This document shows positions 12,728-39,593 of a stretch of DNA of 64,000 nucleotides, piece after piece. The stretch spans positions 1,411 through 65,410 of the forward strand of contig DAIDJM010000024.1 of assembly GCA_027451405.1 (NCBI GenBank), given 5' to 3'. A model generated the notes under the pieces. The model made no database searches and was not told the DNA's origin. It was given only the letters and a program-made list of their open reading frames with translations. The DNA comes from Acetobacteraceae bacterium. GTDB taxonomy: Bacteria; Pseudomonadota; Alphaproteobacteria; Acetobacterales; Acetobacteraceae. The translations under genes and the position numbers were made by a program. The stretch's first letter is position 1; each line of letters opens with the position of its first letter.

Positions 12728-13648
12728 ATGCAGGTTTTCGAGGGCTGGCGCGGACTGCCCGAAGCGGCGCGCGGGGCCACGGTCGCGCTCGGCAATTTCG
12801 ACGGGGTGCATCGCGGACACGCGCATCTGATCCGCAGCGCGCATGCCGCGCGGCCGGACCGGGCGCTGGCGGTGCTGACGTTCGAGCCGCATCCGCGGCG
12901 GGTATTCCGGCCGGACGATCCGCCGTTCCGGCTGACGCTGGCGGGCGAGCGGGCGGCGGCGCTGGCGGGGCTTGGGGTGGCGATCCTCTACCAGCTGCCG
13001 TTCGACCGGGCCTTCTCGGAGCTGAGCGCGGAGGCGTTCGTGGGCGAGGTGCTGCATCGCGGGCTCGGGGCGGCGCATCTGGCCTGCGGGCCGGATTTTG
13101 CGTTCGGGCACCGGCGGGCGGGGGATGTGGGGTTTCTCGCGACGGCGGCGGAGCGGCTCGGGATCGGGCTCACGGTGGTGCCGCCGCTGGCCGATGCGCA
13201 GGGGCCGCTTTCCTCGACGCGCATCCGGCGGGCGCTGCAGGACGGGTATCCGGAGCGGGCCAATGCGGAGCTTGGCCGGGCCTGGAGCATCGCCGGCGTG
13301 GTGGCGGAAGGGGACCGGCGCGGGCGCACGATCGGGTTTCCGACCGCGAATGTGGCGCTGGGCGAACATCTGGAGCCGGCGCGGGGGGTTTATGCCGTGC
13401 GGGTGCGGCTCGGCGACGGGAGTGCGAAGCGCGGGGTCGCGAATATCGGGCGGCGGCCGACGGTCGCGAGCGGGGCGGAGAGCCGGCTGGAAGCGCATCT
13501 GTTCGATTTCGAGGGCGATCTCTACGGGCAGGCGATCGCGGTGGAGCTGCACCGGTTTTTGCGGAGCGAGCGGAAGTTCGAGTCGCTGGAGGCTTTGCGG
13601 GCGCAGATTGCGGTGGATGCGGCAGAGGCGAAGGGTGTTCTTTTTTGA
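12728..13648 (+). CDS. ribF: Bifunctional riboflavin kinase / FAD synthetase
   Basis: ALGNFDGVHRGHAHLI, with GFPTANV in the C-terminal kinase half. ATG at 12728. Confidence 0.9.
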   Translation: MQVFEGWRGLPEAARGATVALGNFDGVHRGHAHLIRSAHAARPDRALAVLTFEPHPRRVFRPDDPPFRLTLAGERAAALAGLGVAILYQLPFDRAFSELSAEAFVGEVLHRGLGAAHLACGPDFAFGHRRAGDVGFLATAAERLGIGLTVVPPLADAQGPLSSTRIRRALQDGYPERANAELGRAWSIAGVVAEGDRRGRTIGFPTANVALGEHLEPARGVYAVRVRLGDGSAKRGVANIGRRPTVASGAESRLEAHLFDFEGDLYGQAIAVELHRFLRSERKFESLEALRAQIAVDAAEAKGVLF

Positions 13649-13785
13649 AAAAAAGAACCAAAAAACTTTTCTCTGTTGGCGCCGTGCCGGCAGCGCCGGT
13701 TTTCGCATGTGACGAGGCGGTGCGGGGTCCGGTGAAAAGCGAAAAGTCTTTTTGCTTCTTTTTCTTCAGAAAAAGAAGATTCTTT
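13637..13785 (+). repeat. ATR-C copy C1 (AT-rich composite hairpin element)
   Basis: Parts in order: hairpin A GTTCTTTTTT-GA-AAAAAAGAAC (its loop holds the ribF stop), CAAAAAACTTTTC, a GC-rich variable core, GAAAAGTCTTTTTG, then hairpin B CTTCTTTTTCTTCAGAAAAAGAAG. Confidence 0.85.
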
Positions 13786-13799
13786 TCTGGAAGTTTTCG

Positions 13800-36599: not shown

Positions 36600-39466
36600 T
36601 GCAGACGGAAGCGGACCTTTCCGAGCTCGACGCCGAATCGTTCGCTTCCCGTCATATCGGGCCGCGGCCCGGCGAGATCGACCGCATGTTGCGGGTGGTG
36701 GGGGCGGCGAGCCTCGACGAGCTCGCGGCGCGGGCGGTGCCGGCGGCGATCCGGCTCGCGGGCGCGCTCGATCTTCCGGCGCCGGCGGGCGAGGCCGAGA
36801 TGCTGGCCGAACTGCGCGGGATCGCGGCCCAGAATGCGCGCTACCGGTCGCTGATCGGCTGCGGCTATCACGGCACGCGGCTGCCGCCGGTGATCCAGCG
36901 CAACGTGCTGGAAAATCCCGGCTGGTACACCGCCTACACGCCCTATCAGGCGGAGATTTCGCAGGGCCGGCTCGAGGCGCTGCTGAATTTCCAGACCATG
37001 ATCACCGATCTGACCGCGATGGATGTCGCGAACGCGTCGCTGCTCGACGAGGGCACGGCGGTGGCCGAGGCGGTGAGCCTGGCGCGGGCGGTGGCGCGGC
37101 AGAAATCCAGCCGGATCGCGGTGGCGGCGGATCTGCACCCGCAGAGTCTGGCGGTGCTGCGGACGCGGGCGCGGCCGCTCGGGTGGGAGATCGTCGAATT
37201 CGCGCCGGAGGATACGGGCGCCATCGCGGGCGCGGGCGCGTTCGCGGTCGTGCTGCAATATCCGGGCAGTTCGGGCGCGGTGCGTTCGTTGCAGGCAGAG
37301 ATAGAGGCCGCGCACGCGGCGGGCGCGCTCGCGATCGTGGCGGCCGATCTTCTGTCGCTCGTGCTGCTGACGCCGCCGGGCGAGATGGGGGCGGATATCG
37401 TGGTCGGCAGCGCCCAGCGCTTCGGCGTGCCGATGGGATTCGGCGGGCCGCATGCGGCGTTTTTCGCGACGCGCGAGGCCTATAAGCGGCATATGCCGGG
37501 GCGGCTGGTGGGCGTCAGTCAGGATGCGGCGGGGCGGCCGGCGCTCAGGCTCGCGCTGCAGACGCGCGAGCAGCATATCCGGCGCGACAAGGCGACCAGC
37601 AATATCTGCACGGCGCAGGTGCTGCTCGCGGTGATCGCCGCGTTCTATGCGATCTGGCACGGGCCCGAGGGGCTGCGGCGCATCGCGCGGCGGGTCAATT
37701 TCGCCGCGCGGTGTCTCGGCGTGGCCGCGGTCCGGGCGGGAATGTCGCTGCGGTCAACAGCGTTCTTCGACACGATCGCGATCGAGGCGGGCGAGCGGGC
37801 CGACGCGCTGATGCAGAGCGCGCTCGAGGCCGGGTTCAATCTGCGGCGGCTCGATGCGACCGGGGTCGCGATCGCGCTCGACGAGACCGTGACGCCGGCG
37901 GAACTGCAGGCGCTGGCCGGCGTGCTCGGGGGCGCCCTGCGTGAGGCACCGGACTCGATTCCGGCGTCGCTCGCGCGGCAATCGGATTTTCTGCGCCATC
38001 CGGTTTTCGCTTCGCATCACAGCGAGCACGGGATGCTGCGCTATCTCAGGCAGCTCGAGGATCGCGACATCGCGCTCAATCGCGGCATGATCCCGCTCGG
38101 CTCCTGCACGATGAAGCTGAACGCGACGTCCGAGATGATGCCGGTGACCTGGCCGGAATTCGCCGACATGCACCCGTTCGCGCCGCCGGATCAGACGCGG
38201 GGCTACAGCACGCTGATCGACCGGCTCTCGCGCTGGCTCGCGGTGGTGACGGGATTTTCGGCGGTGAGCCTGCAGCCGAACGCGGGAAGCCAGGGCGAAT
38301 ATGCCGGGCTGCTCGCAATCCGCGCCTATCATCGCTCGAAGGGCGAGGGCGAGCGCGATATCTGCCTCATTCCGGCGAGCGCGCACGGAACCAATCCGGC
38401 GAGCGCCACCATGGCGGGGCTGCGCGTGGTGGTGGTGGGGTGCGATCCGCGCGGCAACATCGATGTTTCGGACCTGAAAGCGAAGGCACTTCAGCACGCC
38501 GATCGGCTCGCCGCGCTGATGGTGACGTTCCCGAGCACGCATGGCGTGTTCGAAGGACAGATCCGGGACATCTGCGCGATCGTGCATGCCTGCGGCGGGC
38601 AGGTCTATCTCGATGGCGCCAATCTCAATGCGCAGCTCGGTCTGACGAGCCCGGCGATCGTCGGCGCAGATGTGTGCCATCTCAATCTGCACAAGACGTT
38701 CTGCATTCCGCATGGCGGCGGCGGGCCCGGGATCGGTCCGATCGCGGTTGCCGCGCATCTGGCGCCGTTCCTGCCCAACCATCCGTTCCGCGCGGATGCG
38801 GGGCCGCTCACCGGAATCGGGCCGGTGGCGAGCGCGCCGTTCGGCAGCGCCGGCATCCTGCCGATCAGCTACGCCTATATCCGGATGATGGGCGCGGAAG
38901 GGCTGCGCGCGGCGACCGAGACGGCGATCCTGGCCGCGAATTACGTGGCGGCCCGGCTGCGGCCGCACTACCCGATTCTCTACACGGGCGAGAGCGGCTA
39001 CGTGGCGCATGAATGCATCCTCGATTGCCGGCATTTCCAGAACGAGGCCGGCATCACGGTGGAGGACATCGCGAAGCGGTTGCAGGATTACGGCATGCAC
39101 GCGCCGACCATGTCCTGGCCGGTGCCGGGCACGCTCATGGTGGAGCCGACCGAAAGCGAGCCGCTCGCCGAACTCGACCGGTTTTGCGAGGCGATGATCG
39201 CGATCCGCGCGGAAATCGCTGCGATCGCCGAAGGGCGCGCGGACCGGAGCGACAATGTGCTGCGGAATGCGCCGCACACGGCCGAGGAACTCGTGGCCGA
39301 GGCGTGGCCGCATCCCTATTCGCGACGCGAAGCGGTCTATCCGGCGGGTGTCGTGGCCGGAACGAAATACTGGCCGCCGGTGAAGCGGGTGGATAACGCC
39401 TTTGGGGACCGGAACCTGGTGTGTACGTGCGCGCCGGTGTCCGAGTATGCGGAGGCGGCGGATTAG
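36596..39466 (+). CDS. gcvP: Glycine dehydrogenase (decarboxylating), single-chain P protein
   Basis: 956 aa. ATGA overlap with gcvH. Motifs [22 protein letters not shown] and [15 protein letters not shown] (PLP-Lys). Confidence 0.95.
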
Positions 39467-39475
39467 GGGAAGGTT

Positions 39476-39593
39476 GTTCTTTTTTTGAAAAAAAAGAACC
39501 AAAAAAACTTTCTCGTATTTGGAAGGTGCTGGTTCCGGCCTCGATCTAATACGAGAAAAAGTCTTTTTGCTTCTTTTTCTTCAGAAAAAGAAG
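39476..39593 (+). repeat. ATR-C copy C3
   Basis: Hairpin A GTTCTTTTTTTGAAAAAAAAGAAC begins 9 nt after the gcvP stop. The core stem is CTCGTATT...AATACGAG. Hairpin B is CTTCTTTTTCTTCAGAAAAAGAAG. Confidence 0.85.

Follow-up and report, generated by a model that had tools for sequence, protein, structure and literature searches.

A dispersed palindromic repeat of about 135 bp at gene 3' ends in Acetobacteraceae, a candidate REPIN/MITE-like 3'-end hairpin module

The described systems closest in working principle to the repeat reported here are the paired repetitive extragenic palindromic (REP) sequences known as REPINs, hairpin repeats of the ERIC (enterobacterial repetitive intergenic consensus) and Correia type, and MITEs (miniature inverted-repeat transposable elements). 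The repeat is present in three copies, designated as C1, C2, and C3, on a 64,000-nt stretch of DNA from an Acetobacteraceae bacterium (assembly GCA_027451405.1, contig DAIDJM010000024.1, positions 1,411 to 65,410 of the forward strand), which as a whole is called the window. These elements are copies of a dispersed, non-coding, palindromic repeat family of about 135 bp, apparently undescribed and confined to Acetobacteraceae as far as sampled. Similar to the REP/REPIN-RAYT system (RAYT, REP-associated tyrosine transposase; Bertels & Rainey 2011; PMC5581495), the family has two inverted palindromic units, a less conserved spacer, and a possible long hairpin. Like REPs and REPINs, it also has extragenic copies by the hundred, most of them at gene 3' ends, persists vertically while its sequence is conserved at the family level, and leaves no target duplication. 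Different are the heads of the consensus arms, where neither GTAG nor CGTC, nor their complements, is present. This tetranucleotide at the head is a hallmark of most REPs, and CGTC repeats are reported as missing in Acetobacteraceae (PMC3733652). Moreover, the palindromes of the new family are AT-rich and not GC-rich, its spacer is a structured GC hairpin of about 54 nt, and no RAYT gene was seen next to copies within loci of about 8 kb.

ERIC elements (intergenic repeat units, IRU) of enterobacteria and Correia elements (Neisseria miniature insertion sequences, NEMIS) are, as the units here, imperfect palindromes of about 120-150 bp with no coding capacity. ERIC and Correia elements sit in intergenic DNA that is transcribed; as part of the mRNA they fold and influence how it is processed and how stable it is. 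REP and ERIC elements are known to give leaky termination and/or to protect against 3' exonucleases. No sequence relation to ERIC or Correia was seen. Correia elements have a TA duplication, promoters, and sites for integration host factor (IHF), whereas in the copies here neither a duplication of at least 3 bp nor promoter-like sites were found. To our knowledge, placement flush with stop codons has not been described for ERIC or Correia. With MITEs derived from DDE transposons, the family shares a small non-coding body, terminal inverted repeats (~31/36), dispersal, subfamilies, nested insertions, and decayed half-copies. In contrast to them, neither a target-site duplication of at least 3 bp nor a parent insertion sequence (IS) with the same ends was seen for the family; its arms are perfect palindromes in themselves, and pairing constrains its internal region. 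Bidirectional intrinsic terminators, reportedly found between convergent genes by Ju and colleagues in 2019, resemble the unit in a GC hairpin with an A-tract 5' and a U-tract 3' on both strands and in enrichment between convergent genes, but the hairpin here is long and imperfect, and ordinary terminators are not conserved repeated sequence. The combination of invariant AT-rich palindromic arms round a decaying yet paired GC core, flush stop codons with TAA enrichment, and presence in prophages is unusual. A search of the window with Rfam 15 at gathering thresholds recovered tRNAs and a glycine riboswitch only, permissive E-values on C3 gave sub-threshold matches to generic long hairpins only, and a literature search found neither the element sequences nor a matching repeat family of Acetobacteraceae. 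This agrees with a first-pass annotation of the window, in which the elements could be assigned to no known class.

We consider it rather probable that the family is a REPIN/MITE-like non-autonomous repeat serving as a 3'-end hairpin module. That this module acts at transcript 3' ends by leaky termination and/or 3' exonuclease protection is suggested by the sequence more tentatively.

The unit consists of a purine tract, AT palindrome A, the linker CAAAAAACTTTT, a GC-rich hairpin of about 54 nt, the linker AAAAGTCTTTTTG, AT palindrome B, and a pyrimidine tract, in this order and in about 135 bp. It runs about 10 nt beyond the limits of the first-pass annotation on each side, with the purine tract on the left and the pyrimidine tract on the right. 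The A-side tract is variable in length and of the AAGG/AAGC type, and the B side is its pyrimidine mirror. The outer-tract motif follows 22.5% of element-adjacent stop codons vs. 0.5% of others. Each arm holds a perfect palindrome of 10-11 bp with a 2-nt centre (22-24 nt), and the left arm GTTCTTTTTTTGAAAAAAAAGAAC-CAAAAAAACTTT and the right arm AAAGTCTTTTTG-CTTCTTTTTCTTCAGAAAAAGAAG are, over their whole length, imperfect inverted repeats of each other, with about 31 of 36 positions matching in a hand count on the window copies; folds pair both arms. At the boundary of hairpin B and the outer tract, where GAAG is followed by ANTC, the motif GANTC is present in 46 of 95 copies, whereas column frequencies would predict 29, with all four bases at N and no counterpart on the A side (in the window, for example, GAATC at 39593-39597). 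GANTC is the CcrM methylation motif of Alphaproteobacteria.

Hairpin B, CTTCTTTTTCTTCAGAAAAAGAAG, has three exact matches in the window and none in 100 shuffles. Over the same 64 kb, a hidden Markov model (HMM) of the arms and a covariance model each matched C1, C2, and C3 only, the latter with E-values of 5e-24 to 9e-19. Sequence and alignment place the three sites and their layout as the first-pass annotation had them. Folding of each copy gave sense z-scores of -4.0 to -7.2, with similar antisense values, and reproduced the 8-bp stem described earlier in the core of C3. The core of C1, at 71 nt, exceeds the family norm of about 54 nt. The parts of the three copies are as follows.

13625..13790, plus strand: C1, whole unit (covariance model 108.5 bits, E 5e-24)
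13625-13636, plus strand: C1 purine tract
13637..13658, plus strand: C1 hairpin/palindrome A, GTTCTTTTTT-GA-AAAAAAGAAC (sequence, folding)
13659-13670, plus strand: C1 A-side linker, CAAAAAACTTTT
13671..13741, plus strand: C1 GC-rich core, 71 nt, folding as two sub-hairpins
13742-13754, plus strand: C1 B-side linker, AAAAGTCTTTTTG
13755..13778, plus strand: C1 hairpin/palindrome B, CTTCTTTTTCT-TC-AGAAAAAGAAG (exact 24-mer)
13779-13788, plus strand: C1 pyrimidine tract
24741..24899, minus strand: C2, whole unit (covariance model 86.5 bits, E 9e-19)
24898-24888, minus strand: C2 purine tract
24864..24887, minus strand: C2 hairpin A, 7T/8A variant (sequence, folding)
24863-24851, minus strand: C2 A-side linker
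24790..24850, minus strand: C2 core, 61 nt, partly self-complementary (folding)
24789-24777, minus strand: C2 B-side linker
24753..24776, minus strand: C2 hairpin B (exact 24-mer)
24752-24744, minus strand: C2 pyrimidine tract
39464..39605, plus strand: C3, whole unit of canonical size (covariance model 106.7 bits, E 1.4e-23; fold z-score -7.2)
39467-39475, plus strand: C3 purine tract
39476..39499, plus strand: C3 hairpin A (sequence, folding)
39500-39511, plus strand: C3 A-side linker
39512..39556, plus strand: C3 core, a single hairpin closed by CTCGTATT/AATACGAG (folding)
39557-39569, plus strand: C3 B-side linker
39570..39593, plus strand: C3 hairpin B (exact 24-mer)
39594-39600, plus strand: C3 pyrimidine tract

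The family was sampled by scanning species-representative genomes with the exact 24-mer of hairpin B. At least 117 stretches of about 8 kb each were found in about 50 species-level genomes, nearly all of them Acetobacteraceae or similar unclassified metagenome-assembled genomes (MAGs). Named genera among the matches listed include Gluconacetobacter, Asaia, Neokomagataea, Roseomonas/Pseudoroseomonas, Rhodovarius, Rhodovastum, Acidocella, and Endosaccharibacter. A recognisable left arm accompanies 98 of the 128 exact hairpin B matches on 117 loci, with a median distance of 116 nt from GTTC to GAAG. In these loci, the arm HMM identified 112 paired elements, of a median length of 136 nt including the outer tracts, together with about 40 solo arms, and the covariance model about 120 sites in 712 kb. 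After allowing for the copy guaranteed on each locus, the density is about one copy per 20 kb, and the window is alike with three per 64 kb. Copies are also present on replicons (plasmids) of Pseudoroseomonas cervicalis and, as exact matches, in 15 IMG/VR stretches, some of them beside major head and portal genes. On the IMG/VR contigs L198, L200, L202, L209, and L210, the copies lie within (pro)phage structural modules (PHROGs 1357 and 145), and up to three copies per about 14 kb were seen on such (pro)phage contigs. Subfamilies exist within genomes, and half-elements and nested insertions are present. Nested in element cores of the MAG SJ470 is another palindromic repeat, this one GC-rich (CCCTCTCCCC..GGGGAGAGGG with GGCCGGGGTGAGGGG). 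Sites noted for this and similar GC-rich repeats are L109 2446-2665, L109 minus strand about 6653-6817, and L218 4330-4480.

Pairing was evaluated in a structure-aware alignment of 101 unique sites. In this alignment, which was fitted to the model, hairpin A is 99.7% paired and has compensatory pair types at 8 of 10 positions, including swaps of U-A to C-G in 14 copies and of G-C to C-G in 7. The core is 76% paired vs. 58% (standard deviation 0.7) with shuffled partners and has four to six pair types at most positions, and the outer tracts are 66% paired vs. 59%. A MAFFT alignment pointed in the same direction, as every shuffle fell below the observed pairing and slid partners scored lower. 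In 17 copies found without the exact 24-mer, hairpin B varies only by C-G to G-C swaps adjacent to the loop or by paired T/A insertions and deletions. These variants combine freely with the standard A arm, so that each local palindrome, and not pairing of A with B, is the constrained unit. Long-range A-B pairing as the constrained structure was rejected, as the arms vary independently and RNAalifold prefers local hairpins, retaining both of them on 57 copies.

Orthologous copies separate the arms from the core. In the pair L037/L109, the arms are identical at 68 of 68 positions, the flanking third codon positions at about 47%, and the core, with large indels, at about 52%. In the pair L039/L091, the arms are again 68/68 identical, third codon positions 87-90%, and the core 74%, and thus in this one close pair only, the core differs by 26% vs. 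10-13% at third positions. At the orthologous site L019/L100, the left arms are of different types. Judged from these comparisons, the arms are kept far below the neutral rate, and the core evolves at about the neutral rate or above it yet keeps its pairing. For the core of the close pair, this may mean a rate above neutral or exchange between copies. Across genera, the two AT palindromes and their linkers stay almost unchanged, and the changes that do occur all preserve the local palindrome.

An RNA or single-stranded DNA hairpin and a dimeric DNA binder account equally well for the symmetric compensatory change. The AT palindromes might be double-stranded, cruciform, or bent-DNA sites bound at gene ends by a protein conserved in Acetobacteraceae, such as a nucleoid-associated or topoisomerase-recruiting factor, with hairpin RNA being incidental. 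Analogues are gyrase and IHF on REPs and bacterial interspersed mosaic elements (BIME), and GapR on AT-rich 3' ends in Caulobacter. Two perfect palindromes of 22-24 bp with 2-nt centres, conserved in a sequence-specific manner, symmetric changes as a dimeric binder predicts them, enrichment between convergent genes, AT tracts in a genome of about 69% GC, and the GANTC excess at the B boundary (46/95 vs. 29 expected) would suit such a protein. Binding to the arms leaves the compensatory evolution of the GC core unexplained, and no candidate protein was identified; we regard this explanation, drawn by analogy, as quite improbable.

In the first-pass annotation, the core was taken as a copy-specific, hypervariable payload, with unrelated DNA between two independent hairpins named as the finding that would speak against the family. 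Neither description fits the family. The core has a median length of 54 nt (interquartile range, IQR, 52-57) and folds as a single hairpin in 82 of 98 cases, with a median z-score of -2.8. Column identity is 30-70% in the core vs. >90% in the arms, but a core consensus exists (ATCCATTTG...CAAATGGAT; ATCCATTTGcgc...gcGCAAATGGAT), and cores at different sites can be 75-90% identical, both within a genome and between genera. Pairs of cores more than 60% identical make up 38% within genomes, 16% between genomes, and 5% for shuffled cores. With its fixed length, related sequences across sites, consensus, and covarying pairing, the core is therefore a fast-decaying middle of one copied unit. The three cores of the window are near the shuffled baseline in mutual identity, and C1 and C2 are over-long; this local lack of relationship reflects old, decayed copies. 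It has also to be considered that the arms could be independent mobile units of about 46 nt on either side of pre-existing, gene-specific terminator hairpins, with native cores. About 40 solo arms, some of them beside a GC hairpin (e.g., on L012), and the mutually unrelated cores of the window are what such units would leave. Against them are the core length fixed at about 54 nt, the sequence and consensus shared by cores at unrelated sites (up to 90%), and the element-free orthologous typA flanks with a different native hairpin or none. Independent arms round native terminators were rejected on core length and core homology and are extremely improbable.

The gene context of the copies was determined by calling the flanking frames from the GC content of third codon positions (GC3); this heuristic was checked against the window and against plasmid records with annotation.

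Between convergent genes: 34 copies
Between co-directional genes, A side facing the upstream stop: 27 copies
Between co-directional genes, B side facing the upstream stop: 20 copies
Between divergent genes: 1 copy

Thus, 81 of 82 classifiable copies are at gene 3' ends, and the earlier view of a repeat family with a conserved scaffold at this position holds. The constant orientation claimed with it does not, as 27 and 20 copies are in the two orientations (two-sided binomial p of about 0.4, our own arithmetic), and C3, lying between convergent genes, faces one stop codon with each end. Stop codon and arm are separated by a median of 11 nt (IQR 8-23), and in 73% of cases by no more than 17 nt. 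T and the first two purines of the tract make up exactly the in-frame stop on 69 of 125 gene-end sides; chance alone would put about one in three T-preceded junctions in frame. A fixed flank of TA or T was rejected: T precedes the tract in 71% of gene-end sides and in only 43% of other sides. Stop codon usage next to elements differs from that elsewhere on the same loci (chi-square p 9e-12), with TAA enriched fourfold.

TAA: 31% next to elements, 8% elsewhere
TAG: 35% next to elements, 31% elsewhere
TGA: 34% next to elements, 61% elsewhere

A conserved base, a variable middle, and a place after ORFs (open reading frames), the layout seen in the first pass, are also those of integron attC-type recombination sites or of independent small-RNA genes. 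No RYYYAAC/GTTRRRY boxes are present, as the ends read GTTCTTT/AAAGAAC; the flanks are the housekeeping genes ribF, ileS, typA, and gcvP and not cassette arrays; orientation to the ORFs varies; and there are neither promoter-like sites at or in the copies nor an Rfam match. Boxes, context, and orientation exclude attC sites, and the two identities together are scarcely credible.

The genes around the three copies in the window are given below; the earlier identifications of RibF, IleS, TypA/BipA, and GcvP were confirmed with Pfam.

12728..13648, plus strand: ribF, FAD synthetase/riboflavin kinase (Pfam)
13800..16553, plus strand: ileS (Pfam), starting 22 nt past hairpin B of C1
23245..24681, minus strand: gene of a Kelch-motif protein (Pfam), downstream of C2 and co-directional
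24899..26725, minus strand: typA/bipA (Pfam), its TAA stop (24901-24899) abutting the purine tract of C2
36596..39466, plus strand: gcvP (Pfam), its TAG stop (39464-39466) abutting the purine tract of C3
39601..40395, minus strand: gene of a pentapeptide-repeat protein (Pfam), convergent with gcvP, its TGA stop (39603-39601) abutting the B-side tract of C3

The ribF stop codon, placed previously in the loop of hairpin A, is TGA at 13646-13648, in frame. C1 encodes the last four codons of ribF plus the stop (13625-13648; G V L F *), so the insertion reshaped the RibF C-terminus. C1 was also said to end shortly before ileS, and the ileS ATG is indeed at 13800, preceded by GGAAG as a likely ribosome-binding site. 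The spacings of 11 nt from the TAA stop of typA and 9 nt from the TAG stop of gcvP to hairpin A stand as first described. C3 fills the entire gap of 134 nt between the convergent stops of gcvP and the pentapeptide-repeat gene. Its gcvP side reads TAG, GGGAAGGTT, GTTC..., and on the opposite strand, the side of the pentapeptide-repeat gene reads TGA, AAGGATT, CTTC.... On pL11-B, annotated by PGAP, an element fills the gap between convergent coding sequences in the same way as C3. The glycine-cleavage operon, whose last gene gcvP ends at C3, is headed by a tandem glycine riboswitch at 34863-35077 (plus strand), with two RF00504 aptamers of 57.7 and 53.1 bits. Elsewhere in the window, there is a low-GC island at about 8700-10300 (57% GC in the 8001-10000 bin vs. 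about 69% elsewhere), which is possibly foreign DNA; an ORF of 423 aa inside it (8907-10178, plus strand) has no Pfam match.

The presence of the element after typA and ribF is, on distant comparisons of sequence, lineage-specific. It is absent after typA at four loci with TypA 87-90% identical (the nearest 90%), Rhodovastum atsumiense having an ordinary GC hairpin there, and no arm was found at 80 loci with ribF homologues (0/80), where the nearest RibF is 74% identical. On L131, ribF and ileS are about 40 nt apart without an element. In the chromosome of another member of the Acetobacteraceae, typA is followed by GC-rich repeats of a similar kind to the nested one. Flanking direct repeats of at least 3 bp did not exceed shuffled-partner controls, a limit below which a 2-bp duplication would fall; an arm pair enclosing a transposase, as expected of an autonomous IS with the same ends, was not found in the loci of about 8 kb.

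With such data, the element could be purely selfish and MITE- or REPIN-like, its gene ends being merely tolerated sites and the identity of its arms due to recognition by the mobilising enzyme and to gene conversion. Dispersal in high copy number with subfamilies inside genomes, copies in prophages, the lineage-specific presence at typA and ribF, weak terminator scores, and half-elements and nested insertions that look like decay are all consistent with it. However, orthologous copies persist with their arms untouched while synonymous sites saturate, terminal recognition sites need no compensatory pairing of the core, which nevertheless keeps pairing, and the flush placement at stop codons exceeds what tolerance alone predicts. 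We hold this explanation as unlikely.

In the favoured reading as a 3'-end hairpin module, the unit would spread, or would have spread, as a whole by an enzyme leaving no target duplication and recognising the AT palindromes. As the transcribed tail of the upstream mRNA, whichever strand that is on, the unit would fold into three hairpins, and its GC hairpin, A-rich 5' and U-rich 3' on both strands, would make it a two-way 3'-end module, with ends falling at AAAAG followed by UCUUUUUG on both strands. A role of this kind would account for copies being tolerated and retained at gene ends only. As read from the sequence, an A-rich run precedes the GC hairpin and a U-rich run follows the AAAAG base of its stem on both strands, the tails being AAAAG and UCUUUUUGCUUCUUUUU on one and AAAAG and UUUUUUGGUUCUUUU on the other. 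Hairpin and U-tail on two strands have the look of a two-way intrinsic terminator, and the excess of copies between convergent genes fits this. The T-tail scores of the consensus tails, computed by hand, are about 3.2 and 4.8, and those of the window copies 3.2-5.1. No sigma-70-like promoter sites were found in or beside the copies.

Several points weigh against this reading. Of 95 copies, only 8% in the forward and 25% in the reverse direction have a positive d'Aubenton-Carafa score, vs. 0% of control windows. The GC hairpins are long and imperfect, a simple terminator scan of the window copies caught only hairpin B of C1, and a strong canonical terminator was rejected on the mostly negative scores. 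A role as terminator or stabiliser alone leaves the conservation of two specific AT palindromes unexplained, and if copies evolve in concert through gene conversion, this could look like selection on the arms. As to mobility, neither a RAYT nor another transposase was found in the window or in 11 element-flanked intervals, which hold ordinary metabolic genes only (L044, L072, and L001 read gene by gene, the others by eye from translations, with no Pfam scan), and no recurrent mobile-element gene was found in ORF clusters over all loci. A search for a filled and an empty site at high identity gave only distant empty sites, so mobility is inferred rather than seen.

The AT palindromes could, as a further reading of the sequences, be sites for a protein conserved across Acetobacteraceae, such as a domesticated HUH-type hairpin-binding enzyme or another nuclease or recombinase, which would place or maintain the element at stop codons. 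The unit would then be a mobile 3'-end cassette targeting stops, whose cores turn over faster than neutral by exchange. The stops formed at 69 of 125 junctions, the fourfold TAA enrichment, invariant arms with a core difference of 26% vs. 10-13% at third positions, and the differing arm types at L019/L100 are compatible with such a cassette, which we consider distinctly unlikely.

If the reading as a 3'-end hairpin module is true, a few hundred copies per genome of one conserved module would be present across a whole bacterial family, which includes industrial acetic acid bacteria and opportunists such as Roseomonas. The module would define many gene ends and supply or abut their stop codons. 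Genome annotation could use it directly as a marker, assembly breaks and mis-called ORF ends would probably arise from it, and it would be a candidate portable two-way terminator/stabiliser for the engineering of GC-rich alphaproteobacteria. The invariant arms against the decaying core offer a handle for finding the protein that reads the arms, and the flush placement at stop codons is an oddity, open to testing, in the way small repeats select or retain sites.

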